Shown here: positions 6,222 to 36,006 of the stretch, piece after piece
How positions within the stretch are numbered: position 1 is the first letter of the stretch
Layout of the letters: every line of letters begins with the position of its first letter
Origin: Chloroflexota bacterium
Lineage (GTDB): Bacteria > Chloroflexota > Dehalococcoidia > GIF9 > UBA5629
NCBI GenBank assembly: GCA_016875875.1
Contig: VGOP01000003.1
Coordinates: 98,687-162,686 of the forward strand
Length of the DNA: 64,000 bases
Reading direction: 5' to 3'
Notes under the pieces: generated by a model
The model's database searches: none
What the model was told of the DNA's origin: nothing
What the model saw: the letters and a program-made list of their open reading frames with translations, nothing else
Program-made: the position numbers and the translations under genes

Positions 6222-7004
6222 TCACTGCTGGGCGATGACGAAATTTTTCAGCGTGCCGATGTTTTCTATTCTGACTTCAACCACATCGCCCGTATTCATT
6301 GGGCCGATACCTGATGGTGTGCCTGTGGCTATGATATCGCCAGGGAGCAGCGTCATTACACCGGAAATAAAGCTGATGAGCTTGGATGTTCCGAAGATAA
6401 GGTCGCTGGTATAAGCCGACTGGCGCAGTTCGCCGTTGAGGTACGTTTCGAGTTTCAGGTTGTCTGGACTGGCTTCTGTCTCTATCCATGGGCCTATGGG
6501 GGCGAAGGTGTCATAACCCTTAGCTCTTGTCCACTGACCATCTTCAGCCTGATTATGGCGCTCGCTGACATCATTGACACAAGTATAACCAAGTACGTAT
6601 TCCTTTGCCTCTTCTTCTGGAACATCCTTTGCCTTCTTGCTGATGACTACACCCAGCTCACCTTCGTAGTCAACGCGCTTCCAGCCGCGGGGCAGGACGA
6701 TTTTGTCGTCGGGGCCGATGGCAGCAGTGGATGGTTTGAGGAAGATGAGCGGCACTGAAGGCATGGGCAGTTTCATCTCCTCAACGTGGCTGCGATAATT
6801 GAGTCCCAGGCAGATTATCTTGGAGGGGAGACAGGGGGCGAGCAGCCTGACCTCATCCAGTTTGTAGGTACTACCGTCAAGTGTAGATGTGCTGCTAAAA
6901 TGCTTAAAATGAGAAAAGGGGCTGCCGCGGAGTCCGCTTATGGTATTTTGGGCTAGCAGACCATATTTGGCTCTACCCTTGGCAACAAAGCGAACGATTC
7001 GCAA
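6222..7004 (-). CDS. Fumarylacetoacetate hydrolase (FAH) family protein (2-keto-4-pentenoate hydratase / HpcE-like)
   Basis: MRIVRF...KIICLGLNYRSHVEEM...PLIFLKP...DYEGELGVVI...TGTPSGIG, typical FAH-fold motifs. Confidence 0.8.
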   Translation of the reverse strand: MRIVRFVAKGRAKYGLLAQNTISGLRGSPFSHFKHFSSTSTLDGSTYKLDEVRLLAPCLPSKIICLGLNYRSHVEEMKLPMPSVPLIFLKPSTAAIGPDDKIVLPRGWKRVDYEGELGVVISKKAKDVPEEEAKEYVLGYTCVNDVSERHNQAEDGQWTRAKGYDTFAPIGPWIETEASPDNLKLETYLNGELRQSAYTSDLIFGTSKLISFISGVMTLLPGDIIATGTPSGIGPMNTGDVVEVRIENIGTLKNFVIAQQ

Positions 7005-7025
7005 ATCTGCCCCCTTATCCTAGTG

Positions 7026-7892
7026 TTACAATTTAGCAGCATCGAGAATTGCTGGCACCTTGGATTCCAGGCCGATAGCCATTATGTGTGTGCCCTGGCA
7101 CATGCCCTTCATCTCATTTATCAGGCGGGCAGCTATCTCCACACCCTTCTGCAATTTGTTCTCGGCTTTGTCCATCTCGTCAATAAGCTCATCCGGGACA
7201 TGTATACCGGCTACGTTCTTATTCATGAATTTGGCCATAGCTGCTGACCTGAGCACTACTATACCGACTAAAACTGGCACGCCGAATTTCTTAGCTTCTT
7301 TCATAAAGGCTTCGAACGTTTTGGGCTCGTAGATGGCCTGGGTCTGGAAGAACTGGGCGCCGGCCTTTACCTTTCTTTCCATTTTGATGAGCTGCGGTTC
7401 GACAGGGTCGGCTCCGGGAGTAACACAGGCGCCGAGAAAGAACTTGGGTGTGCCCTTTAGTTCTTTGCCAGCTAAATCCTTGCCCTGTTCCAGTTGCTGG
7501 GCAGCATGCAGCAAGGAGACGGAGTCGAGGTCGAAAACAGGTTTGGCATCAGGATGGTCTCCTAAAGTTACATAGTCTCCGGTGAGACAGAGAACATTCT
7601 CAACACCCATAACGTAAGCACTGAGCAAGTCCGATTGGAGGGCGATACGGTTGCGGTCTCGACAGGTCATCTGGAACACTGGCTCGACGCCTTTTTGGTT
7701 GAGCAAGTGACAAGCAACCAGTGACCCCAGCCTCATGACAGCGCTCTGCTGGTCGGTGCAGTTCACGGCATCCACTCTGCCTTTAAGTAATTCGGCATTC
7801 TCGTTGAACTCATGGATATCCACACCCTTAGCTGGGCCGATTTCAGCGGTGACCACAAACTTGCCGTTCTGAAGTTTTTCACGCAGACTCAT
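7026..7892 (-). CDS. metF: Methylenetetrahydrofolate reductase, MetF (acetogen/anaerobe type)
   Basis: MSLREKLQNGKFVVTAEIGPAKG...VDAVNCTDQQSAVMR...FQMTCRDRNRIALQSDLL...LCLTGDY. Start moved to ATG with GGAGGT SD; the track start lies upstream and in-frame. Confidence 0.8.
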   Translation of the reverse strand: MSLREKLQNGKFVVTAEIGPAKGVDIHEFNENAELLKGRVDAVNCTDQQSAVMRLGSLVACHLLNQKGVEPVFQMTCRDRNRIALQSDLLSAYVMGVENVLCLTGDYVTLGDHPDAKPVFDLDSVSLLHAAQQLEQGKDLAGKELKGTPKFFLGACVTPGADPVEPQLIKMERKVKAGAQFFQTQAIYEPKTFEAFMKEAKKFGVPVLVGIVVLRSAAMAKFMNKNVAGIHVPDELIDEMDKAENKLQKGVEIAARLINEMKGMCQGTHIMAIGLESKVPAILDAAKL

Positions 7893-7918
7893 AGTATGGT
7901 TACCTCCTTCAAGGATAG

Positions 7919-8602
7919 CTAAACTTTTGTTTCTTGTTGCTCCAGTGCCCACATTATGGTGGACCTTAGTTCCTTTGGCGGCTGCATTTTGGCGTAGTTC
8001 TTGACTATCGGCATGGTTTGCATTTTATCCAGCCGACCTAGTTTTTTCAGCCTCTCGTAGATTAAGTGCCAGCCGCAATCGCGTACATCGGGTTCAACCT
8101 CGCACTTGCCGTTTTTGGCACCGCCGCAAGGCCCGTTAATGAGCCATTTGGTGCAGGCGGTCAGAGGGCAAATGCCGCCGGTCAAATCGAGCACACAGTC
8201 GCCGCATTCACGGCAACGCTCGCTGCCCCGCCATTCCCCACGGCTACCACCAACATTGATGGTATTAGCCGCCGGATGGACCAGTTTGTTTACCACGGCA
8301 GCAGTAGCCTGGACTCCGATACCGCAGGTCATTACCAACAGGGAATCGGCAGCATCTATTTCATCCTCATGAGGAAACAGTCTGGTCTTAACCAGCGCTT
8401 TGTCACAGAGAAAATCGACAACGCAATAGCCGGTGACGGTCTTGCCTTCCTGCCCCAGTTTCTGCTTCATTTCCAGAACCTGAGGTTCATCGCCAGTCTG
8501 GCAGACCTCAGCACAACCTTTGCAGCCGACTATAAAGATTTTCTTGTCCCCGTCTAAATAGCCCAGGATTTCCGGAAGCGGCTTTAATTCAGAGATTATC
8601 AT
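7919..8602 (-). CDS. metV: MetV-like small subunit of methylene-THF reductase (Cys-rich, zinc-ribbon/Fe-S-like motifs)
   Basis: Cys-rich N- and C-terminal parts (CKGCAEVC, CRECGDC, CPLTAC, NGPCGG, CEVEPDVRDC). Immediately upstream of and co-oriented with metF, as in the acetogen metVF arrangement. Confidence 0.65.
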   Translation of the reverse strand: MIISELKPLPEILGYLDGDKKIFIVGCKGCAEVCQTGDEPQVLEMKQKLGQEGKTVTGYCVVDFLCDKALVKTRLFPHEDEIDAADSLLVMTCGIGVQATAAVVNKLVHPAANTINVGGSRGEWRGSERCRECGDCVLDLTGGICPLTACTKWLINGPCGGAKNGKCEVEPDVRDCGWHLIYERLKKLGRLDKMQTMPIVKNYAKMQPPKELRSTIMWALEQQETKV

Positions 8603-9117
8603 TTGTCTACCTCCATAGCTGTGGTTTCCTCTATCTCCTTGAGAACTAAATTGATTATTTTGGGTATTTTTTCTTCGACTTCTGGGGAGAGGTCAATTCC
8701 GAAGTCCATTGTTTTGGGTTCGATTCCGATGATGACCGTAGATTTTGGTTGTCTGTCAAACAAGGCCATCGTTCTCACGCTGTCTAAAACACCCATCTCG
8801 TGCAGGGAAATAGACGGTGCTGAGTCCAGGTCTACGTCATTTAAGCTGAACCGATAGATGGTACCTGGTCTATCGCCGGCCTTGACGGCATCGATGATGA
8901 TTAATTTGTCTGTGCTGTCATTTACCAGAGACAGGAAGTCGGGGTAAGTGCCAGCGTCAATTATATTGACATTGGCGTTGTCCACAACGCCGGCTAGTTT
9001 TTCAACCAGATGTACGCCTATACCTTCGTCTTTGAGCAACAGGTTGCCTATGCCAAGAACTGTGATTCTGGGACTGCGGCGAAGCGTTTGCGTCTCAGCG
9101 GACTTTGTGTATTCCAA
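8599..9117 (-). CDS. [NiFe]-hydrogenase maturation endopeptidase (HyaD/HycI/HoxM family)
   Basis: ITVLGIGNLLLKDEGIGVHLVEKL...IIDAVKAG...HEMGV. The track start is TTG. Overlaps the end of the large subunit gene. The stop abuts the metV start. Confidence 0.8.
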   Translation of the reverse strand: MEYTKSAETQTLRRSPRITVLGIGNLLLKDEGIGVHLVEKLAGVVDNANVNIIDAGTYPDFLSLVNDSTDKLIIIDAVKAGDRPGTIYRFSLNDVDLDSAPSISLHEMGVLDSVRTMALFDRQPKSTVIIGIEPKTMDFGIDLSPEVEEKIPKIINLVLKEIEETTAMEVDK

Positions 9118-10654
9118 GAGTTCTCCCTTTAAGTGTAATCACGTGTATGGCACAAGCCAGGCAGGGATCGAAGGAGCGGATAATACGCCCGAGCTCAAAG
9201 GGATTCTTTTCATCCTTTATCTTGGTACCGATAAGGGCTTGCTCTACCGGCCCTGGCTGCCCATTGTCATCTTTAGGAGACATATTCCAAGTGCTTGGCA
9301 CGACGCACTGATAATTGGCAATTTTCTTATCTTTAATCTCGATCCAGTGTCCCAGAGCACCTCGGGCACCGTCAACCAGCCCCATTCCGAAGGCTTCGTC
9401 GGGTAAGGTGTAATCTATGTAAGCTGGTTCGCCGGGCTTGAGCTGGAGCAGCCACTCGGGCATAGAATCGGCCAGGAACTTGGTGTAGAGGGCACGGGCA
9501 GCATGGCGGCCGAGTACTGAGAATAGAGCATTGGGGCTGGCGTTAAACTTGGAGAGCACGGAATCAACCAGTTGCTTTACCGTTGGCTCGCCGCTGGCAT
9601 AGGTAGCTGCTATACGGGCCAGCGGACCAACTTCATAGACTTTGCCATCGTACCGAGGAGCTTTCACCCATGAGTAGGCATCTTTCTTGCCCATCTGAGG
9701 CTCGGTCATACCTTTGGACGGATGCTTGCCGGTGCTCGACTCGGCATACCAGGAGTGTTTCACATACTCCATAATCTTGTTCGTGTCGATGGCACCAAGC
9801 TTGAGGTCGGTTGAAATCGTTCCCTGCTTCATAAACCTCTTCCTCTTGGTGTAGTCAGGATTATTGCCTTCGAGGTCGAAACTTCCGTAAGAAAGCAGAT
9901 TGCCGCAACCGGCGCCGATTTCGAAATAGTCAGGATAGGCTTCAGCTACTGCCAGGACATCAGGAATATAGACATTGTTGACGAAGTCCCTTAGCTCATT
10001 CAGCATCCACAGGAAAGAGGCTATTTTGTCTACGGTAACCGTCGCAGTGACTCCGCCCGGGATGACTGCCATATTGTGGGGCATTTTGCCGCCGAAAATA
10101 ACCAGCATTTCCTGCCCCTTGCGCCTCATCTCCAGAGCCTTGACATAATGAGCCAGGGCGCCTATGTTCATCTGGTCGCTGAGCCGGTAATCGCCTTCGT
10201 AGCGAGGCACAAATGGGGCCAGCTCTCCTCGCTTGGCAAATTCTTTGACTGAATTCAAATCTGGGTCGTTGCCATCGTACTTGAGCGCCTTGGTGACGTC
10301 CACGTAATCCAGAGCTGCCAGATGATAGAAGTGCAGTATGTGGTCGGAGACGTGGGCTGCTCCCAGTATGAGATTGCGGATAATCCGGCCGTTATCGGGT
10401 ATCTTATCGGCAAGACCAAAAGCGCTATCCAAATTCAGAGTGGCGGCTATAGAATGGCTTGTGGGACAGACGCCACAGATACGCTGAGTATACATTTGGG
10501 CATCACGGGGGTCTCTACCACGGAGGATGATTTCGAGGCCTCGGAACATCATGCCTGAACTGTGAGCCTCTTTTACCACACCATTCTCGGTGACAACTTC
10601 AACCTTAAAATGTCCTTCAATACGAGTGACAGGGTCAACTACAATCTTGCTCAA
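9095..10654 (-). CDS. [NiFe]-hydrogenase large subunit
   Basis: N-terminal VTRIEGH...RICGVCPTSHS (L1) and C-terminal DPCLACAIH followed by a short cleavable tail (VITLKGRTLGIHKVR). TTG start preceded by AAGGAG. Confidence 0.9.
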   Translation of the reverse strand: MSKIVVDPVTRIEGHFKVEVVTENGVVKEAHSSGMMFRGLEIILRGRDPRDAQMYTQRICGVCPTSHSIAATLNLDSAFGLADKIPDNGRIIRNLILGAAHVSDHILHFYHLAALDYVDVTKALKYDGNDPDLNSVKEFAKRGELAPFVPRYEGDYRLSDQMNIGALAHYVKALEMRRKGQEMLVIFGGKMPHNMAVIPGGVTATVTVDKIASFLWMLNELRDFVNNVYIPDVLAVAEAYPDYFEIGAGCGNLLSYGSFDLEGNNPDYTKRKRFMKQGTISTDLKLGAIDTNKIMEYVKHSWYAESSTGKHPSKGMTEPQMGKKDAYSWVKAPRYDGKVYEVGPLARIAATYASGEPTVKQLVDSVLSKFNASPNALFSVLGRHAARALYTKFLADSMPEWLLQLKPGEPAYIDYTLPDEAFGMGLVDGARGALGHWIEIKDKKIANYQCVVPSTWNMSPKDDNGQPGPVEQALIGTKIKDEKNPFELGRIIRSFDPCLACAIHVITLKGRTLGIHKVR

Positions 10655-10657
10655 TTT

Positions 10658-11554
10658 CTATTTCTCCTTTCCTCGGAGTTTGCCTATAGCGGGCATGTTG
10701 GCGTCGCTTAATTTCTGATAGACAGGAGCCACCAAATCGGGAAATCCGGGCTCGCAGCAGCCGATGCAGGGCGAACCGGCATCGATGCACCAGTTTGTTC
10801 CATGGTTCCATTTCCTCAATGGGCAATCTGCATGAGTAACCGGCCCCTTGCAGCCAAGCTCGTTGAGGCACCCAGGCTCCCCGAACTTCCTGGCAAATTT
10901 TCCTTCATCAAAATAGGCTCGTCTGGGACAATTCTCATGTATTAAATTACCGTAGAAAACCTTGGGGCGTTTAAGTTCATCTAAATCTTCTGGTTTAGGT
11001 AAGCCTAGAAGCAGCACGGAGGCGACCGTGCCTATGAACCAGTCGGGGTGGGGTGGGCAACCTGGTAGATTGACTAAGGGCTTGTTGATTTTGCACGATT
11101 TCAAAAATTTGTCGGTGCCGATATAACCACCGGGGTTAGGCTTGCCAGCAGCGATACCGCCGTAGGCAGCGCAGGTGCCCAGGGCGATGACTGCCAGAGC
11201 ATCCTTGGCTAAAGCTTCAACCCGCTCTGTCATGGGCACCGGTTTGTCGTTTTTCTCACCAAGTGCTCCGTAGATACCACCATCTTTGGTGGGTATGGCG
11301 CCTTCGACTACCAGAACATAGCCGCCTTTATTTGTCTCTGGCATATTTTCGAGGACATGAATTGCGGCTTCTCCTTCGCCAGCCATTACGGTCGCCTGGA
11401 ATTTCAGGCTTACATGTTTACCGGGTACAACTTCATCGATAAGGACATTCTTGATGTTTGGGCTAACTGTATTGAGGACTGTGACTGAACATCCGGTGCA
11501 AGTACCTGTCTGTATCCAGACAACCGGAATTTCTTGAACGTTTGCTTTAGGCAT
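10658..11554 (-). CDS. [NiFe]-hydrogenase small subunit, no Tat signal peptide (cytoplasmic type)
   Basis: MPKANVQEIPVVWIQTGTCTGCSV... proximal cluster motif right at the N-terminus; further Cys ligands (CAAYGG, GCPPHPDW, CPRRAYF, CLNELGCKGP, CIGCCEPGFPD). Start moved to ATG with AAGGGGG SD; the track start is an upstream TTG. No RRxFxK motif. Confidence 0.85.
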   Translation of the reverse strand: MPKANVQEIPVVWIQTGTCTGCSVTVLNTVSPNIKNVLIDEVVPGKHVSLKFQATVMAGEGEAAIHVLENMPETNKGGYVLVVEGAIPTKDGGIYGALGEKNDKPVPMTERVEALAKDALAVIALGTCAAYGGIAAGKPNPGGYIGTDKFLKSCKINKPLVNLPGCPPHPDWFIGTVASVLLLGLPKPEDLDELKRPKVFYGNLIHENCPRRAYFDEGKFARKFGEPGCLNELGCKGPVTHADCPLRKWNHGTNWCIDAGSPCIGCCEPGFPDLVAPVYQKLSDANMPAIGKLRGKEK

Positions 11555-11703
11555 TCGACCCCCTTTCTTTGCCAAGAGTTGCCAACCGCAAATTCTACAG
11601 GTTTGTGGCGATTAATGCAAGTAGATTCGGTGGCAATTTTTAGATAGGGGTAGCACTCCCTAAACTATACTGCCACTTCTCTTAGCAGAAGGACGAGGAA
11701 ATC

Positions 11704-12024
11704 TTATGGCAACTTGCCCCTCTTCTTCCTTCTTTCTACTATTCTATCCTCTCTCCTTTTGAGATAGCTCGTCCCGATTATACTGAGGGAAGTCAATGCT
11801 ATTGCTGCCCCTATAAGAATATAAAATGCAGTGAACAGGCGGCAGGCGTCAGAAGTCGGGTGCAAGTCTCCGTAACCGGTTGTGGTAAAGGTCGAAACAG
11901 AGAAATAGAAGCATTGAATCCATGTCCATCCCTCAAAATATCTATATGTCACCGTGCCCATTATAATAACCATTATTAACGCGAAAGAAGCGGATACTAT
12001 TTGTGCTCTTATGTTTGATAACAT
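11704..12024 (-). CDS. Minimal two-TM potassium channel (Ion_trans_2 / KcsA-like pore domain), 106 aa
   Basis: TM1, pore helix and canonical K+ selectivity filter TTTGYGD, then TM2 and a basic C-terminal tail (KRREDRIVERRKKRGK). ATG preceded by AAAGGGGAG. Confidence 0.7.
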   Translation of the reverse strand: MLSNIRAQIVSASFALIMVIIMGTVTYRYFEGWTWIQCFYFSVSTFTTTGYGDLHPTSDACRLFTAFYILIGAAIALTSLSIIGTSYLKRREDRIVERRKKRGKLP

Positions 12025-12187: not shown

Positions 12188-13195
12188 CTAGCATATCCGG
12201 GGCAGAAGCTCTCCGCTAAGCATATCAACGATGCGGGATGCCCCGAGCCGCGTCTTCATTATCACCTTGCCTTTGTACTCATCGGTTACCTCACCGATGA
12301 TGGCAGCTTCGGCACCATATTGATTCCGTTTCATCTTGGCCAGAACCATTTGGGCATCGTCTGCGGTGACTATAGCTACCAGCTTGCCTTCATTAGCGAC
12401 ATAAAGCGGGTCGAAGCCGAGAAGCTCGCAGGCAGCTCGTACGCCATCATGTATAGGTATCTTTCCCTCTTCTATCCTGATGCCCACTTTGGACTGTTTG
12501 GCAAATTCGTTGAGTGTGGTGGCTAAGCCGCCTCGAGTTGGGTCACGCAGGGAATGAATTTGCGATGAGTCTTCCGCCATCTGCGACACCAGTTTGTTCA
12601 AGGGGGCGCAGTCGCTTTGAACTGGGACTGAGAACTTCAGCCCTTCGCGCTGGCTCATCACCGCAATGCCGTGGTCGCCGATGGTACCGCTGAGGATAAT
12701 TTTGTCGCCTACTTTGGCATTAGCCCCTGATATATCTATACCCTGTGGGACGATACCTATGCCCGAGGTGTTGATGAACAGTTTATCAGCACCGCCCCGG
12801 TTTACCACCTTGGTATCGCCGGTGACTATCTTCACTCCAGCTTCTTCAGCGGCAGCTTTTATTGAGCTGACTATCTTTTTCAGTTCGCCGAGCGTTAAGC
12901 CTTCTTCTATAATGAACGATAGGCTCAGGTACAGTGGTGTGGCTCCGCTCATGGCTATGTCGTTAATGGTGCCGCAGACAGCTAGCTTTCCAATGTCGCC
13001 GCCGGGGAAGAAGATGGGACTAACTACATAGCTGTCAGTGGTGAAGGCAAGGCGACCGCTGAGGTCGAAAACTGCCGAATCGTCCAGTTTGGCTAATAGC
13101 GGATTGGCTAGAGGCGGCAGGAAATTTTTCTCTATCAGCTCATGACTCAGCCGGCTGCCGCTGCCATGAGCCAGCAGGATTATTTCATCATCCAT
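12188..13195 (-). CDS. hypE: Hydrogenase maturation factor HypE (carbamoyl dehydratase)
   Basis: PurM-like fold, C-terminal PRIC motif ending the protein. Confidence 0.9.
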   Translation of the reverse strand: MDDEIILLAHGSGSRLSHELIEKNFLPPLANPLLAKLDDSAVFDLSGRLAFTTDSYVVSPIFFPGGDIGKLAVCGTINDIAMSGATPLYLSLSFIIEEGLTLGELKKIVSSIKAAAEEAGVKIVTGDTKVVNRGGADKLFINTSGIGIVPQGIDISGANAKVGDKIILSGTIGDHGIAVMSQREGLKFSVPVQSDCAPLNKLVSQMAEDSSQIHSLRDPTRGGLATTLNEFAKQSKVGIRIEEGKIPIHDGVRAACELLGFDPLYVANEGKLVAIVTADDAQMVLAKMKRNQYGAEAAIIGEVTDEYKGKVIMKTRLGASRIVDMLSGELLPRIC

Positions 13196-13222
13196 AATCA
13201 GCTCCGTACTTATAGTAGAGAA

Positions 13223-13281
13223 TGTAGGGCCAGGTCTTTAGACCTGTCCGAGGTGGACAGACCTGAAGGTCTGTCCCTACA
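13223..13281. repeat. 59-nt near-perfect palindrome between hypD and hypE (arms TGTAGGGCCAGGTCTTTAGACCTGTCC / GGACAGACCTGAAGGTCTGTCCCTACA), followed by GTTTTTCTCC
   Basis: Read directly; related half-elements (TGTAGGG..AGG[C/T]CTTTAG[A/G]CCTGTCC) at 42862..42888 and (GTAGGGACAGG) at 43305..43315. Confidence 0.5.
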
Positions 13282-13326
13282 GTTTTTCTCCTTACAAAGG
13301 AGAGGGGGATTAAGGGGGTGAGGTTG

Positions 13327-14412
13327 CTAAACAATTTCATATTGATAATAAGCGGCACAGGCACCTTCTGAAGATACCATGCATGGCCCTACAGGTTGCT
13401 CTGGAAAACAGGCCTTGCGGAATAGCTTGCACTCATTAGGAGTCTTTACACCGCGAAGGATATCGCCGCAGATGCAGCCCTTCGCTTCTCGGACCGGCTC
13501 CAGGGTTACTGAAAAGGCTAGCTCGGCGTCGAAACGTCCGTATTCCTTTCTCAGTTTCAGGCCGCTGGCTGGAACAACGCCTATACCTCTCCAATCGGCG
13601 CCACTGACTTCAAAAACGCTGTCCATTAGCTTTAAGGCTGTTATGTTACCTTCAGGCTTAACGCCACGGCGGTAGGCTATCTCCACCCGCGGCTTGCCGC
13701 TTTCGATTTGCTCCACCAGCATGGCTACGGACTGCAGAATATCCAGCGGCTCGAAGCCTGAGACTACGCAGGCAACGCCGTAGTCGCGGGGGATGAATTC
13801 GTAGTGACGAGAGCCAATTATGGCACTGACATGCCCAGGGCAAACGATGCCGTCCAGCTTGAGCTCACCCAAATCAAGGATAGCTTTCATTATTGGTGGG
13901 CATAGCTTCAGCAGGCAGAGGACGTAAAAGTTTCTGATTCCTTCATTTTCAGCCTGAAAAATGGAGGCGGCGATGGTTGGGCTGGTGGTCTCAAAGCCGA
14001 TGCCGATGAAGATAACCGACCGTGTTGGGTTGTCCCTGGCAATTTGCAGAGCATCTTGGGTGGAGTAGACAATGCGGATATCAGCCTCTTCTGCTCTGAC
14101 TTTCTGCAGGCTGGAATAGCTGCCGGGGACTTTCATCATATCGCCGAAGGTGGTGATAATGACATCGGGCAAGCGGGCCAGGGCAATAGCTTTATCTATA
14201 TCGGCGTTGGCGGTAACACACACCGGGCAGCCCGGGCCAGAGAGCATCTCTACAGTTGGGGGAAGAAGCTGGCGGATACCGTTTCTCATGATGGCTACGG
14301 TGTGCCCGCCGCAGAACTCCATCAGCCTGGCTGGCCTTTTCGACAGTTGCTCTATTCTGGCTACCAGCTTTTTGCCCAGCTCAACATCCCGGTATTCATC
14401 AATAAATTTCAC
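13327..14412 (-). CDS. hypD: Hydrogenase maturation factor HypD
   Basis: MKFIDEYRD..., GPGCPVC and CPVC... Fe-S/CxxC motifs; GTG start sharing a base with the upstream stop (TAGTG). Confidence 0.9.
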   Translation of the reverse strand: MKFIDEYRDVELGKKLVARIEQLSKRPARLMEFCGGHTVAIMRNGIRQLLPPTVEMLSGPGCPVCVTANADIDKAIALARLPDVIITTFGDMMKVPGSYSSLQKVRAEEADIRIVYSTQDALQIARDNPTRSVIFIGIGFETTSPTIAASIFQAENEGIRNFYVLCLLKLCPPIMKAILDLGELKLDGIVCPGHVSAIIGSRHYEFIPRDYGVACVVSGFEPLDILQSVAMLVEQIESGKPRVEIAYRRGVKPEGNITALKLMDSVFEVSGADWRGIGVVPASGLKLRKEYGRFDAELAFSVTLEPVREAKGCICGDILRGVKTPNECKLFRKACFPEQPVGPCMVSSEGACAAYYQYEIV

Positions 14413-15137
14413 TATTCGACTCTTTCTTCCAGGACAGTTTCACCAGCAAGCTTCCCGTTGGTTAGCTGCAACAACGCCTGCTCGGCTTGCTCGAGATTAT
14501 TTGCCAAATCTTCAAGAAGGCTTAGATACTCTGCAGACTTGTTTTTAAATTTATCCAGGTACTTCTGCTTTATCGCCGGGTCTGAGTTACCGATGCTGTC
14601 CCCAATGTTAGTGAGGACGTACTCATTAGTATTCTTGTAGCTCATGGCTAAGTGCTCTGCGCCATTCAGCGTCGACTGAAGCTGGTTGCACAGATCCAGC
14701 CACTGGGGCATGGTGGAATTATCGGACGGCCTTGTTGCTCGTACCTTTTCCGCCATCTCTAAAGACATATCGCAATAAAGCACTAGAGTCCCTGCCGATT
14801 CTGGCCGCGGCAGCATCTCGGGCAGGGGGATCCACTTACAGCCGCTGCTTTCATCAAATGACCCTTTTGTAGTCACATACTCACCCAGCTTACATACGTC
14901 ACTCGGCGGCACTTCCAGGCCAATAACGGAAAACTCATCCCAGGTGAAATCTTTGAGCTCCAAGGCTATACCACGAGTCTCCTCAATATAACCCTTCATC
15001 GCATCATAGGGGTCGACAGGCTTGCGTTCCTCAATTCGGTTGAGACTTCTGGGGACCCACAATAAAGCCAGGCCGGCGAGCAAAAGCACAACTCCAGCAA
15101 CCAAAGCGGCATGCAATACGTACCTATTCCGCTTCAT
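14412..15137 (-). CDS. Hypothetical N-terminally membrane-anchored protein embedded in the hyp operon (no recognisable family)
   Basis: KRNR followed by a hydrophobic helix (LHAALVAGVVLLLAGLALLW), then a ~200-aa soluble domain with scattered Cys and a C-terminal coiled-coil-like segment. Start overlaps the hypC 3' end and the stop overlaps the hypD start. Confidence 0.5.
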   Translation of the reverse strand: MKRNRYVLHAALVAGVVLLLAGLALLWVPRSLNRIEERKPVDPYDAMKGYIEETRGIALELKDFTWDEFSVIGLEVPPSDVCKLGEYVTTKGSFDESSGCKWIPLPEMLPRPESAGTLVLYCDMSLEMAEKVRATRPSDNSTMPQWLDLCNQLQSTLNGAEHLAMSYKNTNEYVLTNIGDSIGNSDPAIKQKYLDKFKNKSAEYLSLLEDLANNLEQAEQALLQLTNGKLAGETVLEERVE

Positions 15138-15354
15138 CGCCAAGCCTCACCATCTCCTCCAATATCTTCAGTGTCTCCTGGGCTTCGGCTTCGTCGATAA
15201 CGTTTATGGCATAGCCGGTGTGTAGCAGGACATAATCGCCGACCTTGGCCTCCGGGGTAAGCATTATGCTGACTCGGCGTTTTACACCGCCGATTTCCAC
15301 CTCAGCTTCATTGCCGTCTATCGAAGTAACCTGTACTGGAACAGCTAAACACAT
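15124..15354 (-). CDS. hypC: Hydrogenase maturation factor HypC
   Basis: N-terminal MCLAVP motif, 76 aa. Confidence 0.85.
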   Translation of the reverse strand: MCLAVPVQVTSIDGNEAEVEIGGVKRRVSIMLTPEAKVGDYVLLHTGYAINVIDEAEAQETLKILEEMVRLGDEAE

Positions 15355-15364
15355 AGTTTTCCTT

Positions 15365-17668
15365 TCAACTGAAATTGGCGATGACGGCCTGGCCTAAGGA
15401 GATACCGCCGTCATTACATGGCACCTGCTTATGGGTTAACACCGAAAAGTCGACAGATTCAAGCAAAGGCACGACTTTTCTTAGCAGCAACCGATTCTGG
15501 AAGACACCGCCGCTCAAGGCTACCCGGTTAATTCCGGTCTTCTTGGCTATCAATTGACACATCTTGCATATCATCTGGGCTGCGGTATTGTGAAATCGGG
15601 CTGATATTGTAGCTTTAGACACGTCTTGATATAAATCCTTGACTATGGCAGAAAGCAGCTCTTTGAGCTGGATGATATTTGTCCCATCATGCTCAACTAT
15701 AGAATATGGGTAACTGTCACTGCCGACTTCATCGCCAGCATCATAGGCTGCCATCTCAAGCTCGACAGCTGCCTGACCTTCATAATCTATCTCGCCCCTG
15801 ATGCCTAGCAAGGCTGATACGGCATCGAATAGACGCCCCATACTCGAAGACAATGGTGAGTTAAGTCCGGTCTGGATTTGCCGCTTGATAAGCTCAATTT
15901 CAACAGCATCAACTTGCTTCAAGAAACCTAGTTTGGGGCTGATGGAGTCCTCTCCCAGTAGCTTGAGAAGGTAGCCTATGGCAGTTCGGTACGGCCTTCT
16001 GATGGCAGCAGCTCCACCGGGCAAAGGGAGGTACTCAAGGTGCCCCATTCTCTGGAAACCTTTGTAATCAGCGGCCAGAAATTCTCCTCCCCAGATGCGC
16101 CCATCGCTACCATATCCCGTGCCGTCTAAAGCCACACCGATAACCGGCGACTCTACTCCATTGTCAACCATACAGCTAACGATGTGGGCATGATGGTGCT
16201 GAACCGGCACGAGCTTAAGATGGCTGAACTGGCTACCCAGCTCCAGCGCGTATTTGGTTGAAAGGTATTCCGGATGGAGGTCATAGGCAACGATTTCAGG
16301 CTCGATACGGAACAGCTTTTTATACAGAGCTAATGTGTTTTCGAAATGTTCCATGGTCTCCAGGTTTTCCATGTCGCCGATATGCTGGCTGATGAAGGCA
16401 TAATTGTCTTTGGTTAAACAGAAAGTGTTCTTCTCCTCAGCACCACAGCCGAGCACCTGCTTAGCTGTGAAAGGTAGGTGAATAGGATACGGTGCATAGC
16501 TGCGAGCACGCCGTGTAAGCTGGAGCTCGCCTCTTTCGATGACAGTCACACTGTCGTCATACCTGGCATGTATGTCACGGTTATGGACCAGGAAGCAATC
16601 AGCAATTCCCAAGAGCCGTCTGACAGCCTCATCGTTATCTTTGGCAATCGGCTCCTCGCTGATATTGCCGCTGGTCATTACCAACGGCAGTCCTATATCT
16701 CTGAGCAAGAGATGATGCAGTGGAGTGTATGGTAGCATCACACCAAGGTATTTAAGGTTTGGAGTTACTGCCTCGCATACCGTGGACTCTGGCTTCCACC
16801 CCATCAGCACTATTGGACTCTGCGCCGATGTAAGCAGCTTTTCTTCTATTTCAGATACGTAGCAATGTCTCTTAGCTTCCTCTATGTCGGCGACCATTAT
16901 GGCTAGTGGCTTGAATGGGCGTCTCTTTCTCTGGCGCAGCAGTTCAACAGCTTTCTCACTGGTGGCATCGCAGGCCAGGAGAAAACCACCCAGACCCTTG
17001 ATGGCAAGAATTTTTCCTTCTTTGAGAAGACGGCTGGCAATGACAATGACGTCGGATGTTTCGACATGATTTCCCTTGACATCGAGCAGTTCCAGCTCTG
17101 GCCCGCATTTGGGGCAGGCATTGGGCTGAGCGTGGAAACGGCGGTCTAAAGGGTTTTTGTACTCTATCTGGCAATCAGTGCACATCTGAAAGGAGCGCAT
17201 GGTGGTTTTGGGACGGTCGTAGGGAATGTCTTCTATAATGGTGAAGCGGGGGCCGCAATTGGTACAGTTAGTGAAGGGGTAATGGTAGCGTCTGTCTTCG
17301 GGGTTGAAGATTTCCTCAAGGCAGGCCAGGCAAGTAGCGATGTCCGGAGACACCAGTTGATATTTGTCTGCTTCGGCGATGCTACTACGGATTTCAAAGT
17401 TTGTGTAGTCTGTCGGCGGATGATAGGTAACAGTTATGCTTTCTATGCGAGCCAGCGGCGGTGCCTTATCTTGGAGGTCAAACAAGAAACGCTTCAGATC
17501 TTTGCTTTCACCTTGAACTTCAATTTTAACATCCTCGGAGGTATTGCAAACCCAGCCTTTCAGGTTGTATTTAGCAGCCAGCTGATAAACGAAAGGCCTG
17601 AAGCCAACCCCCTGAACCACGCCGCGAGTGCTTATTCGAGCTAATTCTACTGTTCCAACTCTAGCCAT
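15365..17668 (-). CDS. hypF: Carbamoyltransferase HypF
   Basis: Acylphosphatase domain (VQGVGFRPFVY), two Zn-finger CxxC pairs (CLACLEE...CTNCGPRF; CTDCQIEY...CPKCGP), YrdC-like and Kae1/YgjD-like domains. Track start is TTG; ATG two codons in (MARV...). Confidence 0.9.
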   Translation of the reverse strand: MARVGTVELARISTRGVVQGVGFRPFVYQLAAKYNLKGWVCNTSEDVKIEVQGESKDLKRFLFDLQDKAPPLARIESITVTYHPPTDYTNFEIRSSIAEADKYQLVSPDIATCLACLEEIFNPEDRRYHYPFTNCTNCGPRFTIIEDIPYDRPKTTMRSFQMCTDCQIEYKNPLDRRFHAQPNACPKCGPELELLDVKGNHVETSDVIVIASRLLKEGKILAIKGLGGFLLACDATSEKAVELLRQRKRRPFKPLAIMVADIEEAKRHCYVSEIEEKLLTSAQSPIVLMGWKPESTVCEAVTPNLKYLGVMLPYTPLHHLLLRDIGLPLVMTSGNISEEPIAKDNDEAVRRLLGIADCFLVHNRDIHARYDDSVTVIERGELQLTRRARSYAPYPIHLPFTAKQVLGCGAEEKNTFCLTKDNYAFISQHIGDMENLETMEHFENTLALYKKLFRIEPEIVAYDLHPEYLSTKYALELGSQFSHLKLVPVQHHHAHIVSCMVDNGVESPVIGVALDGTGYGSDGRIWGGEFLAADYKGFQRMGHLEYLPLPGGAAAIRRPYRTAIGYLLKLLGEDSISPKLGFLKQVDAVEIELIKRQIQTGLNSPLSSSMGRLFDAVSALLGIRGEIDYEGQAAVELEMAAYDAGDEVGSDSYPYSIVEHDGTNIIQLKELLSAIVKDLYQDVSKATISARFHNTAAQMICKMCQLIAKKTGINRVALSGGVFQNRLLLRKVVPLLESVDFSVLTHKQVPCNDGGISLGQAVIANFS

Positions 17669-17819
17669 AAACAAATGAATTGTACTTCAGGCGAGTGCCG
17701 AGGGCAAATTTGAAATCTTTTCTTCGCAGATTCGCCTACACCTGCTTGACAGCGATGATATATGGTGCTACGATAGCCTCGTTATCCGAGGCATAACACA
17801 TTATGTTAACTGGAAAGGC

Positions 17820-18692
17820 ATGACCAGCACCACTATTATCGCTGACAGCATTGCCTGCATTACAAAAAAGCAAGCCGAGGACTATGGGATTAGAATAATC
17901 CCGGTCAATATATTATTCAACGGCCACGTTTATCGAGACTTTATAGACCTGAGTTCAACTCAGGCCTATGAGTTTCTGGAAAAAGCTCCCGAATTCTGGA
18001 AAAGTTCCGCGCCTTCTCCTGAGGACTACCTTGAGGCCTACCGGGAACTCAGTAAGCATGCTCGTAGTATCCTAGTGGTCACCATATCCTCAAAACTGAG
18101 CATGTTCTACTGCAGTGCCCAAAATGCTAAAGAGATATTCAAGGAAGAGTCACCTCAAACTGCCATTGAAGTTCTTGACAGCGAAACCGTTGCCGCTGCT
18201 GAAGGTCTTATCGCTTTGGCAGCAGCCAGAGCAGCCGCCGAGGGTAAGTCTTTTGATGAAGTCATTTCCATAGCTAAAAAAGTTAAAGGACGGGTTAAAT
18301 TCGTTGGTCTTCTGGAAACCATTCGCCATGTCTATAGAACCGGAAGGATGCCTAAAGTTGCCTCTGAAATAGGCTCTATGCTTTCCATTAAGCCCATTCT
18401 AACCGGTTCCAATGGCAACATCCACTTCGCCGCCGCTGCTAGAACTAAACAGAGCGGGATTGAAAAAATGCTCAAGATAATGAGAAATCACGTAGTCAAT
18501 TCGGAGCCGGTCCACGTGGCGGTTATGCACGCTGACGCCTTGAAAGAAGCTGAAAAACTCAAGGAAAAGATAGCCGCTGAGTTCAACTGCGCTGAGCTCT
18601 TTATAACTGATTTCAGCCCCATTATGGGTTATGCCACCGGTCGGGGAACACTCGCTCTGGCTTATTACAAGGAAGACCGCTTTGATAAATGA
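17820..18692 (+). CDS. DegV family fatty-acid-binding protein
   Basis: DegV/EDD-fold sequence features (IIADSIACI..., ...SSKLS..., ...RHVYRTGRMPKV...). Confidence 0.8.
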   Translation: MTSTTIIADSIACITKKQAEDYGIRIIPVNILFNGHVYRDFIDLSSTQAYEFLEKAPEFWKSSAPSPEDYLEAYRELSKHARSILVVTISSKLSMFYCSAQNAKEIFKEESPQTAIEVLDSETVAAAEGLIALAAARAAAEGKSFDEVISIAKKVKGRVKFVGLLETIRHVYRTGRMPKVASEIGSMLSIKPILTGSNGNIHFAAAARTKQSGIEKMLKIMRNHVVNSEPVHVAVMHADALKEAEKLKEKIAAEFNCAELFITDFSPIMGYATGRGTLALAYYKEDRFDK

Positions 18693-19331: not shown

Positions 19332-21993
19332 CTAATAAGCCTGGCTGTAAATTTGCAGAACTTCATTCGGGTCACTGACAGGGCGCCCATTGAATAGGAC
19401 AGCCGTATCGGCAATAGCATGGAAGGCGCATATGGCCAGGTTCTCTTCCGGAACGCCCACGTCGCGCAGCCTCATCGGATGGCCCACTTTTGTCATCAGT
19501 GCTTCCACTGCGTCCGCTGCTGCCAGGGCGGCATCGCGCTCCGCCATGCCGCTGGTGTTAACGCCCAGGGCCTGTGCTACCTGAGCTAGTTTGTCAGCCG
19601 CGTGATCGACGTTGTACCGCATCACCTTCGGGAGCACTATGCCGCAAGCTGCCCCATGTGGGACATGGTATAGTGTCCCTATAGTATGCGCCATACCATG
19701 TGCCAGGCCGACCTGGGCCATGGTGAATGCCCAACCTGCCATGGTGGCTGCTAACTGCAAATTGAGCCGTGCCTTTTCATTCTCGCCATCGGCTACCACG
19801 AGCGGTAGGTTCTCGTGGATCAGGCGTATAGCCTGCAATGCTTGACCGTCACATATCTTGTTTGCCATGGTGCTTGTCATAGCCTCGATGGCATGTGTCA
19901 GGGCATCCATGGCGGTGGATACGGTTATATCCTTGGGGAAAAGACGTGGTGAAGCGCGGGTCCAGAATAGCCACATTTGGCATGATTCGTGTGTCGACTA
20001 TGAACAGTTTACGTCCCGCGCCTTTGCTTGTGAGTACGGCTATGCTTGTTACTTCACTGCCGGTTCCCGCTGTTGTTGGAATGGCGATATGAGGGGTTTG
20101 AGGCTCAGTGAGTACCAACATGTTCAGATGGTCATTCGCCTTGCCGCCGTTCTTTAAGGTCACACAGACCCCTTTGGCAGTATCGATAACGCTCCCACCA
20201 CCCACGCTTACGATACAGTCCGCCTTCAGTTCGCGGGCCATGGCAGTGGCCGCATCTACTGTTTCCAGATCGGGATCCGACGGGATATTGTCATAGATAC
20301 CCACGCAGAAATCCGCAAGGGCATTCTTCGCCAGCTCAGCCAGCCCGGCCTGCCTTACGCCGGGATCGGTAAGAATCAAAGCCCTGCGGCAGCCAAGATC
20401 CGCAACTGCCTTGTAGATTGAGCTCAGAGCTCCGTGGCCAGCGACTACATTAGTCGGACAGTTGTACGAAAAACCGTCTACCTTTTTATAGTCCGACATA
20501 AGTTGAAAGGAGATATTCGTCTTATGGTCGGCCAGGGCGGACACATGTATTCTCTTGATCTGGGTATATTCATGTAATCCCGCGAGCCCCAGCTCACGTC
20601 CTACGCCGGACTGCTTATACCCACCAAAGGGGCAGAAATCGGCAAAGACGTGGTAATTGTTTATCCACATTGTTCCGGTACGTACCCCGCGGGCTACACG
20701 CTCGGCCCTGGCGGTGTTAGAAGAAAATACCCCTCCTCCCAGGCCATAAATGGAGTCATTGGCAATTGCCACTGCTTCTTCATCGCTGTCGTATTTTATA
20801 ACACAGACAACTGGGCCAAAGATCTCTTCCTGCGCGATACGCATTTTGTTGTTCACGTTGGCGAAAATGGTGGGAGCATAGTAGAATCCGCCATTGATTC
20901 CTTTAACCTCGACGCGTTTTCCACCTGTGATCAGTTCCGCTCCCTCTTCATTACCCATTTTGACGTAACGTTCGACTGTGGCCAATTGCGTCTTGCTGAC
21001 AAGAGGCCCCATGTGCGAGTTAGGGTCCATCTGGTATCCGATGCGGATAGATTCAGCTCGCTTTTTCATCTTGTCGAGGAACTCATCATATATCTTTGAT
21101 GAGACTAGTACGCGTGTACCTGATTCGCATATCTGTCCCTGGTGGAAGAAGGTGCCGAAAACGGCGCCCTCTACGGCCAGGTCCATATCAGCATCGTCAA
21201 GTATGATATTGGCCGATTTACCGCCGAGCTCGAGTGTCACTTTTTTCACCGTGTCGGATGCCAGTCTCATGATTTCACGTCCGACTTCCGTGCTGCCGGT
21301 AAAGGCTATCTTGCCCACATCGGGGTGGGTACAGAGAATTTTGCCCAGCTCTCCCCCTGGTCCGGTTATGACATTTACCACCCCGTTGGGAATGCCGGCC
21401 GCTTTGGCGGCTTCAGCAATGATAAGTGCGCTCAATGGGGTTGCCGAAGCCGGTTTCAAAACGATGGTATTTCCCATTACGAGGGCAGGGGCGATTTTCC
21501 AGAAAGCCATGGTCATGGGGAAGTTCCAGGGAATGATTCCCACGCATACGCCAATTGGCTCCCTGCGGATAAATTCACGGCCCGGTGCAAATACATTCCC
21601 TGAGATCTGGATCTCTTCCTCCCAGGGAAATTTTGTGGCCGCTACTAGACTCAGATTGCGCAATAACCCGATGCCGAGCAAGGGCCCGAACTTGGCGAGT
21701 CCCATGATCTGGTCTGAATCCATGCATTCAGTTGCAGCCAGACGTAGCCCCTGCTGTGCTACCTGGTCGGCAAAATCCTGAATTTTTGCCATACGGGCCA
21801 CCGGGGACAACCCGCTCCAGCCCCCGCTGTCGAAAGCCTTACGTGAGGCGGCTATAGCCGCCTCTGCATCAGCCTTTCCCGCTTGTGCTACTGTTGCTAT
21901 AGGAGCTTCAGTGCCAGGGTCGATCGATTCGAAGGTCTTTCCGTCTGCGGCGTCGACAAATTCTCCATCAATAAACAGTTTATATTGCTCCAT
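19332..21993 (-). pseudogene. AdhE-like bifunctional aldehyde dehydrogenase / iron-containing alcohol dehydrogenase, interrupted by a frameshift
   Basis: N-terminal ~490 aa is NAD-ALDH superfamily. The Fe-ADH domain follows (GGGSVIDTAKG...), but the frame breaks at ~19930-19945 within a T4/C4 run (coding strand cgtcttttccccaagg). The downstream frame continues the ADH (DITVSTAMDALTHAIEA...HVPHGAACGIVLP...). Track ORFs 19849..21993 and 19332..19976. Confidence 0.6.
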
Positions 21994-23984: not shown

Positions 23985-25129
23985 AGACACCGGATTTAAT
24001 AGTTAAGGGGAAAGATAATGGAGAAGGTATGGTCATCCATTATAAGACCACTAAAGGAACCGATGTCTTCGGATTGGCCATACCTAACATATACACCCAT
24101 GCCGATTGGGACCTTGGGCCTACCTGGTGTTATTTAGTCGTTGGCCAGAAGACTACCTTGATAGACACTGGCCGGCTCGGTAACTTCGAGGTTTTTGGGA
24201 TTCTTCTAAAGTCAATAGGCAAGGGATTTTCGGATATCGATAGAACCGTCGTCACCCACAGCCACGAAGACCATGATGGTAATGTGGTTGAAATAATCTC
24301 CGCAACGCAGACTGAATTATGGGCCCACGCAATTTACCGCCAGATGATTTCCTATCACCCCCACATAAAAGAAGGCGCCCTGCATCCTGAGCTGCCCGGT
24401 TCTTGCCGTTTCTGCAGAATGCCTGAAACCTTCTACAAGAACTGCTTACCATACCATAAGGCAAGAAGTTCGTTGAAAATTGACTTTAATATCGAGGATG
24501 ACCAAGAGCTGCCAGACGACGCCCTTAGCTTCGTCTTTACCCCGGGGCACACCCCCGACTCGATCTGCATCGTTTTGGAGGATGAGGCTATATTTACCGG
24601 TGATACCTTACTGCCTGACATCACCTCTCAGCCTTCCCTGGCATATGCCTTCGAAGTCAATCGCCGGATCTTACCAGAAGGGTATCGCCGAAGAAACAAT
24701 GTTTACGGGCTAATGAACTATATCAAATCTTTAAGCAAGATAGCCCATCTTGCCTCACAGCCCCTTAAAGCTACCTTTCCCGCCCATCGCCTGTTCTATA
24801 ACGGTCGGTTCAACCTTCTTGGTAGTGCCGAGCGAGCTAAGGAAATTATCCAGTTTCATATTGACCGCTGTGGCGATATCTTGGAAATTATTGATGACAA
24901 ACCGGCTGGCATAAAAGATATCGCCGTCCAGCATTTTCCTCCTTCGCGGCTTGCTGGCATGGGAAAAGCATTAGCGGAAAACGAAATCAGGGCTCATATC
25001 GAAATTATGGAGGCGTGTGGCGATATCTGTTGGACTGGCGAAAACAAAAAGCTAGTCCAGCGCACCGGGTCGAAAAATTCCCTAGATTCCATAGGGGCGT
25101 ATTTGCGCTCATCACCATCGAACCGCTAG
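23981..25129 (+). CDS. MBL-fold metallo-hydrolase
   Basis: HSHEDHDG motif (HxHxDH), downstream ...TPGHTPDS...; ATG overlaps the hypA stop (ATGA). Confidence 0.75.
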   Translation: MKTPDLIVKGKDNGEGMVIHYKTTKGTDVFGLAIPNIYTHADWDLGPTWCYLVVGQKTTLIDTGRLGNFEVFGILLKSIGKGFSDIDRTVVTHSHEDHDGNVVEIISATQTELWAHAIYRQMISYHPHIKEGALHPELPGSCRFCRMPETFYKNCLPYHKARSSLKIDFNIEDDQELPDDALSFVFTPGHTPDSICIVLEDEAIFTGDTLLPDITSQPSLAYAFEVNRRILPEGYRRRNNVYGLMNYIKSLSKIAHLASQPLKATFPAHRLFYNGRFNLLGSAERAKEIIQFHIDRCGDILEIIDDKPAGIKDIAVQHFPPSRLAGMGKALAENEIRAHIEIMEACGDICWTGENKKLVQRTGSKNSLDSIGAYLRSSPSNR

Positions 25130-26901: not shown

Positions 26902-26975
26902 TTCGTACTACCACCTTGGATGTTTATACCATCTACGTAGTGAGGCAGACATGGCCCGGGCTCTCTGTAAACCTG

Positions 26976-33348: not shown

Positions 33349-33369
33349 ACTTATACTTAAGCAGCCTTA

Positions 33370-35901: not shown

Positions 35902-36006
35902 TCAATAACTAAGTCGTCTTGTAAACCATCAGTGAATTAGCTGCTATGGTGGAAAAACTATATCATAAGCAGGCTAAAACTACCAACCACCTGCTTCGCT
36001 CTTTAC

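Follow-up and report, generated by a model that had tools for sequence, protein, structure and literature searches.

A conserved operon joining a signal-less [NiFe] hydrogenase to metVF suggests H2-dependent methylene-tetrahydrofolate reduction in uncultured Dehalococcoidia

Among the steps of the Wood-Ljungdahl pathway, the reduction of 5,10-methylene-tetrahydrofolate (methylene-THF) is the one whose electron donor is least settled, and this donor sets how much energy acetogens and related anaerobes can conserve. The methylene-THF reductases described to date comprise an E. coli type, the MetFV types 2S (Clostridium ljungdahlii), 3S with RnfC2 (Acetobacterium woodii) and 6S with HdrABC-MvhD (Moorella thermoacetica and Sporomusa ovata), and a putative NuoEFG "X type" (PMC8515935). 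Within the MetFV enzymes MetV is the established electron-entry subunit, and its hallmarks are a PF12225 domain, an NGPCGG motif, two sets of [4Fe-4S] cysteines and a gene directly upstream of metF (PMC8515935). Here we describe an operon at positions 7026 to 11554 of a 64,000-nucleotide stretch of a Chloroflexota bacterium genome of the class Dehalococcoidia (GCA_016875875.1, contig VGOP01000003.1, forward-strand positions 98,687 to 162,686; hereafter the window), in which metV and metF follow the genes of a [NiFe] hydrogenase and its maturation protease on the minus strand. Our analysis indicates that this operon probably encodes a soluble complex of hydrogenase small subunit (HydS), hydrogenase large subunit (HydL), MetV and MetF that acts as an H2:methylene-THF oxidoreductase. 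We also lean towards regarding HydSL-MetVF as self-contained; it would then represent a methylene-THF reductase class of its own and, for the first time, a group-1a/1b-like [NiFe] hydrogenase that has given up export and serves a Wood-Ljungdahl enzyme as dedicated electron input.

The locus shares with the acetogen MetFV types a Cys-rich MetV with PF12225 and NGPCGG, a MetF with PF02219, the placement of metV immediately upstream of metF and, in relatives, a position among Wood-Ljungdahl genes, but it differs from all of the listed types in having a [NiFe] hydrogenase as the associated input module. With the Sporomusa ovata chain (PMC9430772) it has in common H2 as donor, methylene-THF as acceptor and MetVF as terminal reductase. 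The S. ovata hydrogenase, however, is exported by the twin-arginine (Tat) pathway, periplasmic and cytochrome b-bound, and its electrons travel via quinone and HdrCBA-MvhD across the membrane, building a proton gradient (PMC9430772), whereas the hydrogenase described here is predicted to be cytoplasmic and soluble, with no scalar or vectorial gradient expected. Likeness to the periplasmic group 1a/1b [NiFe] and [NiFeSe] enzymes of Desulfovibrio and Desulfomicrobium lies in top structure similarity, in the L1 and L2 motifs and in a C-terminal extension with its protease, and the three small-subunit clusters with a fourth medial Cys recall the NiFeSe enzymes in particular. Unlike the periplasmic group 1a/1b enzymes, it has no Tat signal, no cytochrome partner, a Cys in place of selenocysteine (Sec) and an obligate MetV neighbour. 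Like MvhAGD-HdrABC (group 3c) and the hydrogen-dependent CO2 reductase of A. woodii, it is proposed to be a cytoplasmic hydrogenase hard-wired through iron-sulfur subunits without a free carrier. It departs from MvhAGD-HdrABC in hydrogenase lineage, in acceptor enzyme and in having no bifurcating HdrA in the window, and the A. woodii CO2 reductase uses an [FeFe] enzyme.

The locus thus presents known modules in a new, conserved combination. No [NiFe] hydrogenase-metVF operon is described in the searchable acetogen, syntroph and Chloroflexi literature, a body of text that leaves most subscription journals outside its coverage. A published remark that metVF lies "next to genes of a hydrogenase" (PMC6895022) apparently refers to an MvhD-type subunit in the figures of that paper, and in one paper these hydrogenase genes are read as the ordinary uptake type, hyaABD.

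Five genes make up the operon. The small subunit gene (10658..11554, 298 aa; PF01058 and PF14720) starts at the ATG at 11554, behind a GGGGG ribosome-binding site, rather than at the TTG at 11575 where the mechanical open reading frame (ORF) opens. It is followed by the large subunit gene (9095..10654, 519 aa; PF00374 at 552 bits and NF033181 at 716 bits against a cutoff of 600), a HycI-type maturation endopeptidase gene (8599..9117, 172 aa; PF01750 and TIGR00072), metV for the iron-sulfur electron-input subunit of a MetFV-type reductase (7919..8602, 227 aa; PF12225 at 106 bits) and metF for its flavin-containing catalytic subunit (7026..7892; PF02219). ORFs and family matches bear out this order on the minus strand as proposed in an earlier sequence-only reading, and PF12225 and PF02219 confirm that its 227-aa protein is MetV and the next one MetF, the latter being 288 rather than the 289 aa it had given. 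The 3-nt gap between the small and large subunit genes and the 23-nt overlap between large subunit and protease genes, both read from the sequence, are also as that reading had them. Its gap of 0-3 nt between protease and metV is in fact a tighter 4-nt overlap, in which the metV ATG lies over the protease stop codon (ATGA). A 26-nt gap containing a GGAGG site separates metV from metF.

The large subunit carries the nickel-binding motifs RICGVCPTSH (N-terminal) and DPCLACAIH (C-terminal), with C60, C63, C498 and C501 kept in all 77 clade members examined. The active-site residue C498 is Cys, not Sec, and there is no in-frame TGA. A 15-residue C-terminal extension follows His504, is present in 77/77 as well, and is predicted to be removed by the PF01750 protease of the operon. 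Group affinity was assessed by ranking the large subunit against solved structures, as a proxy for a formal HydDB subgroup. The best scores, 418-460 bits, fall to the periplasmic group-1 enzymes of Desulfovibrio and Desulfomicrobium, which we take to represent groups 1a/1b, followed by ~399 bits for Allochromatium (3myr), 340-350 bits for E. coli Hyd-1 and Hyd-2, ~209 bits for the mycobacterial 'Hydrogenase-2' chains, presumably group 2a, and ~155 bits for 5aa5. NiFeSe-specific curated models stay below their cutoffs, with 530 of the required 780 bits for the large subunit and 315 of 470 for the small one, and affiliation to group 3c fails at 95 bits on the VhuA model, whose cutoff is 800. The best solved relative of the small subunit is the NiFeSe small subunit of Desulfomicrobium baculatum, 1cc1. 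Ligands of the proximal (C19, C22, C128, C166), medial (C244, C263, C266) and distal (H206, C209, C229, C235) clusters recur in 72-73 of the 73 members of the clade, and a fourth medial Cys, C256, which has a counterpart in 1cc1, is found in the window and in 57 of the 73.

Both ends of the small subunit bear on the location of the enzyme. The start Met lies 18 residues ahead of the proximal CxxC, and the alignment with 1cc1 begins at residue 6 of the mature chain, from which the signal has been cleaved, so that no Tat signal is present; in ~75 related loci a stop codon closes the frame a few codons upstream of this Met, which makes a Tat signal of 30-50 residues impossible across the clade. 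The C-terminal tail is short and hydrophilic clade-wide, with no membrane anchor. When the small subunit was searched against 1.84 billion cluster representatives (50%-identity clusters), the clade's own signal-less representative scored 410 bits and the next ones 327 bits and below, and most of the latter that were inspected have RRxF-type signals together with hydrophobic C-terminal tails, the tails being read from sequence. A clade that is signal-less and anchor-less among such neighbours appears to have lost both of the features that place its closest relatives at the membrane. No cytochrome gene occurs in the operon or elsewhere in the window. We accordingly find the hydrogenase predicted to be soluble and cytoplasmic, the sequence-only reading having likewise placed it in the cytoplasm from the missing Tat signal. 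Judged by its sequence, the hydrogenase lacks two defining features of respiratory group 1, namely export and a membrane or cytochrome partner, and for this reason should not be filed simply under that group.

Conservation of the arrangement was followed in two sets of loci. The first comprises 80 species-representative (GTDB) genomes, the best of 206 confirmed relatives by large subunit, with large subunits 67-94% identical and with the window proteins mapped onto each locus. MetV is encoded on the same strand within 1.2 kb in all 77 of these loci that extend past the large subunit and follows the hydrogenase in 69/69 that have at least 1.5 kb of downstream sequence; the three loci in which MetV is missing break off no more than 79 nt from the large subunit gene. 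The protease lies between large subunit and MetV in 55 loci, and MetV comes directly after the large subunit in 22, with a median gap of 17 nt. Tight junctions recur as well, the overlap of the protease with the large subunit gene having its mode at -23 or -29 nt and the protease-to-metV junction a median of -4 nt. MetF lies within 150 nt of MetV in 56 loci and after an inserted histidine kinase or second metV in 11. The second set consists of independent metagenome contigs, seeded with a divergent signal-less small subunit representative (P0241), and here MetV is just downstream of the hydrogenase in 46 of 47 informative loci; in the sole exception (L117) metV immediately precedes the small subunit gene. 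Hydrogenase and MetV are therefore adjacent in all 116 informative loci (69 species loci and 47 metagenome contigs), and in reciprocal look-ups from MetV 3/3 homologues on long contigs lie behind small subunit, large subunit and protease. The linkage is far beyond chance, and the synteny in related genomes that the sequence-only reading had put forward as a check is conserved throughout. In two loci (L084 and L085) metVF is enclosed by the structural genes of the hydrogenase on one side and hypFCDE on the other, a placement not easily put down to accident. Hosts are mostly Dehalococcoidia and other Chloroflexota metagenome-assembled genomes (MAGs), with Syntrophobacteraceae and Nitrospirota/Thermodesulfovibrionales MAGs among them, and one Syntrophobacteraceae locus lies on a 4.97-Mb chromosome.

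The operon also appears to have a promoter of its own. A promoter-like element, TTGCAT and TAGAAT separated by 17 nt (11592..11620, minus strand), sits ~40-65 nt upstream of the small-subunit ATG, its function being proposed from sequence and conservation. The block TTTGCAttaatcgccATAAAnnTGTAGAAT upstream of the small subunit gene is kept in 17 of 18 close loci, the sequence further upstream of it is unrelated among them, and this pattern suggests that the block is the operon's own promoter. Such a conserved block is found only ahead of the small subunit gene, and there is no comparable intergenic space before metV. A scan of 6-18 kb for terminator and promoter consensus sequences returned no more sites than shuffled sequence and nothing convincing inside the operon; a promoter within coding sequence inside the operon may nonetheless be compatible with these data. 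Downstream of the promoter-like block and ahead of the ribosome-binding site, the 5' leader (11555-11591, minus strand) holds a conserved tandem TTGGCAA...CTTGGCAAAG motif that could be a regulator binding site.

MetV is the protein on which the proposed connection turns. It has the NGPCGG motif and 11 invariant Cys, and the hydrogenase-adjacent MetV proteins form one similarity cluster, a single clade. D63 and W124 are invariant in 76/76 hydrogenase-linked MetV proteins, S87, H109 and E132 are near-invariant in them, and all five are lacking in 15 unlinked MetV copies found in the flanks of hydrogenase loci, while the iron-sulfur Cys and NGPCGG are kept in linked and unlinked copies alike. 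Pairwise divergence of MetV follows that of the small subunit (r = 0.92) and of the large subunit (r = 0.90), against a slightly tighter r = 0.94 between the two hydrogenase subunits and a weaker r = 0.74-0.75 between MetF and the hydrogenase subunits, correlations that in part reflect shared species phylogeny and carry no neutral-gene baseline. Two deep classes can be told apart among the MetF partners, one of 36 and one of 23 loci, and identities fall as low as 38%. Taken together, MetV looks like an adaptor between hydrogenase and MetF. MetF itself scores 126 bits on PF02219 against a cutoff of 24 and has weak but specific matches to solved methylene-THF reductases, and its TAEIGP, LTGD and QTQ segments, compared by eye and not by alignment, are ones we take to resemble the contexts of the E. 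coli catalytic Glu, Asp and Gln; it is predicted to reduce methylene-THF. MetV has no match in a sequence search of the PDB, nor does its AlphaFold2 model find one in the PDB with Foldseek at E < 1e-3, and it is thus without structural precedent. The model is confident only for an N-terminal alpha/beta domain (residues 1-116), the Cys-rich half being poorly modelled. Among long small-subunit homologues the fusion partners are aldo-keto reductase, pyridine-nucleotide-disulfide oxidoreductase or Ig-like domains. One of these proteins (P0306, 711 aa) is a group-1-like small subunit with an aldo-keto reductase fused at its N-terminus, and another (P0349, 809 aa) has an N-terminal pyridine-nucleotide-disulfide oxidoreductase and a BFD-like [2Fe-2S] domain; both look like further wiring of group-1-like hydrogenases to cytoplasmic oxidoreductases.

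From the observed gene content, cofactor ligands, location signals, operon architecture and linkage we infer a complex, its substrate and a direction of electron flow. One operon would supply a four-subunit soluble enzyme, HydS-HydL-MetV-MetF, together with a dedicated maturation protease. The large subunit would cleave H2 at its [NiFe] site and hand the electrons to the small subunit, whose proximal, medial and distal clusters would relay them in turn. MetV would take them up from the distal cluster through its two [4Fe-4S] clusters and deliver them to the flavin of MetF, where 5,10-methylene-THF would be reduced to the 5-methyl-THF that enters the Wood-Ljungdahl pathway. In this scheme the hydrogenase would stand in place of the known MetFV inputs, which are ferredoxin, RnfC2, HdrABC-MvhD and NuoEFG-like modules. 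With E0' values of -414 mV for H2 and -200 mV for methylene-THF (PMC9430772), H2 uptake yields a calculated -41 kJ/mol under standard conditions and ~-13 kJ/mol at 1 Pa H2. Such favourable energetics lead us to expect a non-bifurcating, high-affinity H2 sink, and we favour an H2-consuming role over H2 release. With both half-reactions in the cytoplasm, the enzyme itself would not be expected to build up a proton gradient. If the assignment is true, an H2-evolving energy-converting or bifurcating hydrogenase together with HydSL-MetVF could, speculatively, close an intracellular H2 cycle, in which methylene-THF would be the terminal acceptor of an energy-conserving chain.

Several observations weigh against a self-contained H2:methylene-THF oxidoreductase. 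An uncoupled reduction of methylene-THF with H2 wastes ~41 kJ/mol, which is odd for energy-limited anaerobes. The search of the window turned up no further Wood-Ljungdahl genes, the long small-subunit homologues include no small subunit-MetV fusion, and a search for a cultured host returned only MAGs. The divergence correlations owe part of their strength to shared descent, as noted above, and in some variant loci MvhD, HdrA-like, NuoF-like or EtfAB genes hint at further partners. Finally, a soluble carrier could act between hydrogenase and reductase, given that reduced ferredoxin serves purified 2S MetFV as electron donor (PMC8515935).

This last point is the core of an alternative that we consider unlikely, in which hydrogenase and reductase are co-regulated but separate proteins that form no stable complex, the hydrogenase reducing a diffusible carrier (ferredoxin, flavodoxin or thioredoxin) that feeds a two-subunit MetFV. 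The purified C. ljungdahlii MetFV does accept reduced ferredoxin, flavodoxin or thioredoxin (PMC8515935), and the absence of hydrogenase-MetV fusions among long small-subunit homologues is equally in keeping with separate proteins. The cluster, however, has no conserved carrier gene, and from established potentials H2-driven reduction of ferredoxin would be uphill at environmental H2 for a non-bifurcating group-1-type enzyme. It is, moreover, MetV and not MetF or a carrier that is the constant immediate neighbour of the hydrogenase, co-diverging with it and carrying clade-specific invariant residues, a pattern that speaks against separate proteins joined by a carrier.

The same complex could also run in reverse in vivo, oxidising methyl-THF derived from acetate oxidation or from methylated or methoxylated substrates and releasing H2 to syntrophic partners, although we regard this as improbable. 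With C256 present, as it is in the window, all three small-subunit clusters would be four-liganded like those of the NiFeSe enzyme 1cc1, and NiFeSe enzymes are good H2 producers. Syntrophobacteraceae are among the hosts, and the glycyl-radical enzymes and AdhE-like gene of the window suggest a fermentative organism. The thermodynamics are nevertheless demanding, as H2 would by calculation have to stay below ~0.01 Pa at equal substrate and product, or below ~0.6 Pa with methyl-THF and methylene-THF at 100:1, and these limits lie at or below typical anoxic-sediment levels. Syntrophic acetate oxidisers have, in addition, been proposed to need reversed electron transport at this step (PMC6895022).

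Whether HydSL-MetVF works alone is best judged from its neighbourhoods. Family searches of the 64 kb found no Hdr or Mvh genes, as the sequence-only reading had stated, and the search likewise gave no RnfC2, HdrABC-MvhD or NuoEFG genes in the window; the phrase "without HdrABC/MvhD" of that reading holds for the window type of cluster but not clade-wide, since one locus has MvhD (L166) and another an HdrA-like flavoprotein (L117). Relatives' clusters adjoin genes for corrinoid iron-sulfur protein, methyltransferase, carbon monoxide dehydrogenase (CODH) or formate dehydrogenase, and in two close relatives (L082 and L016) a response regulator comes after the cluster, along with two CdhD-family genes, of which one has an added pterin-binding domain, and CODH; these Wood-Ljungdahl genes make the association with one-carbon metabolism a general one. 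Other neighbourhoods are more elaborate. In the L043 variant (6393-9070 and 13656-18471) a NuoF-like protein of 637 aa and a CooC-like ATPase are encoded upstream, and a DUF3786 protein and a 1366-aa 2Fe2S-GltD-like-formate dehydrogenase fusion downstream. In L036 (836-5075) and ~10 similar loci the cluster is preceded by genes for EtfB, an EtfA fused to ferredoxin and a membrane CCG-domain FeS oxidoreductase of 656 aa. In L117 (1353-12745) the order is a 1490-aa HdrA/GltD-like multi-flavin FeS protein, metV, hydS, hydL, protease, a cyclic-nucleotide (cNMP)-binding histidine kinase and metF, an alternative arrangement shared by L116 and L135, and this type of variant could be electron-bifurcating. 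L166 (4643-13219), from a Syntrophobacter sp. SbD1 MAG, runs mvhD(FlpD)-metV-metF, hydS-hydL-protease-metV-kinase-metF-response regulator, so that one hydrogenase is flanked by two MetVF pairs; its large subunit is annotated 'Periplasmic (NiFe) hydrogenase' despite belonging to the signal-less clade. L025 has, in addition, a separate hydrogenase-free NuoE/F/G-like-metV-kinase-metF cluster of the "X type" (PMC8515935).

These variants hint at further partners in their own lineages, and partners could conceivably act in trans in the window lineage. On this basis the four proteins might be the core of a larger flavin-based bifurcating complex in which H2 reduces both methylene-THF and ferredoxin, with the remaining subunits encoded elsewhere in the genome, an arrangement that we hold to be quite unlikely for the window. 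It would spare the wasted 41 kJ/mol, and it gains from the HdrA/GltD-like gene directly upstream of metV-hydS in L117, from the MvhD-metVF genes that adjoin the hydrogenase in L166 and from the NuoF-like or EtfAB/FeS-oxidoreductase genes upstream in relatives. MetFV by itself, however, is non-bifurcating (PMC8515935). Partner genes are absent from the window and from the window-type clusters of close relatives, in which the operon is bounded by the conserved promoter-like block and the hyp genes.

A role for the hydrogenase as an HoxBC/HupUV-like H2 sensor that regulates metVF and donates no electrons is very improbable and was rejected on the C-terminal extension with its protease and on the group-1 affinity: the histidine kinase and response regulator genes found between metV and metF in some variants would suit it, but such genes also accompany the hydrogenase-free metV-kinase-metF cluster of L025, the window operon has no kinase, regulatory group 2b hydrogenases have no large-subunit C-terminal extension and need no protease, whereas here the extension is found in 77/77 with a protease gene in the operon, and group 1 structures score 418-460 bits against ~209 bits for the mycobacterial 'Hydrogenase-2'.

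Should HydSL-MetVF prove to be the H2-dependent reductase proposed here, it would add a further donor solution for methylene-THF reduction beyond NADH, ferredoxin, RnfC2, Hdr/MvhD and the proposed NuoEFG type, and it would supply a concrete donor for the uncultured Dehalococcoidia that are abundant in lakes, peat and marine sediments. Its distribution would then be wide, taking in Dehalococcoidia from sediments and lakes as well as Syntrophobacteraceae, and "uptake hydrogenase" genes in metagenome surveys, now read as periplasmic or hyaAB-type, would have to be read differently. It would also offer a compact four-gene module for H2-driven C1 reduction.

The genes that flank the operon lie on the same strand, which carries every called gene from 17674 to 6222. 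A fumarylacetoacetate-hydrolase-family gene (6222..7004, minus strand, 260 aa; PF01557 and PF10370) begins 21 nt past metF and may be the last gene of the operon transcript; it follows metF only in closer relatives (17 loci), and as the next gene downstream is convergent, the transcript must end by ~6200. On the other side lies a hydrogenase maturation block (12188..17674, minus strand, Pfam matches), consisting of hypF (15365-17674, recognised from its translation), hypC (15124-15354), a 243-aa protein without a Pfam match (14412-15143), hypD (13327-14412) and hypE (12188-13195), all on the minus strand, and a hyp block of this type also flanks the operon in relatives. The 243-aa protein has an N-terminal hydrophobic helix and weak homologues (~30% identity) at the same position in L016, L017, L020, L021 and L023, L082 has a 231-aa gene without a Pfam match at the hypC-hypD position, and the 243-aa protein may be an undescribed hydrogenase maturation factor. 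Between hypE and the operon is a gene for a two-helix K+ channel (Ion_trans_2; 11704-12024, minus strand, 106 aa), separated from the small subunit gene by a 150-nt spacer and not detected at the matching position in related loci.

Elsewhere in the window, a molybdenum/tungsten cofactor riboswitch (RF01055, 70.7 bits; 28224-28342, minus strand) lies directly upstream of a three-gene ABC transporter (25126-27941, minus strand) that by eye is of the molybdate/tungstate uptake type; a 97-aa ORF (27957-28250) that overlaps the riboswitch is probably spurious. An AdhE-like aldehyde/alcohol dehydrogenase (19332-21993, minus strand) is split, with Aldedh and the N-terminal Fe-ADH domain in 19849-21993 and the Fe-ADH C-terminal domain (PF25137, 197 bits) in an overlapping frame (19332-19976), the split being a frameshift that marks either a pseudogene or an assembly error. 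Tandem glycyl-radical enzymes of 843 and 989 aa (PFL-like plus Gly_radical), within 32314-39892 on the minus strand, are accompanied by a radical-SAM activase (32314-33348) and a PNPOx-like gene. Further along, dnaA (56427-57851, plus strand), gyrB (59718-61652, minus strand) and gyrA (47106-49565, minus strand) are close together, cumulative GC skew turns at ~58 kb with its minimum near 56-58 kb, and the window probably spans the replication origin.

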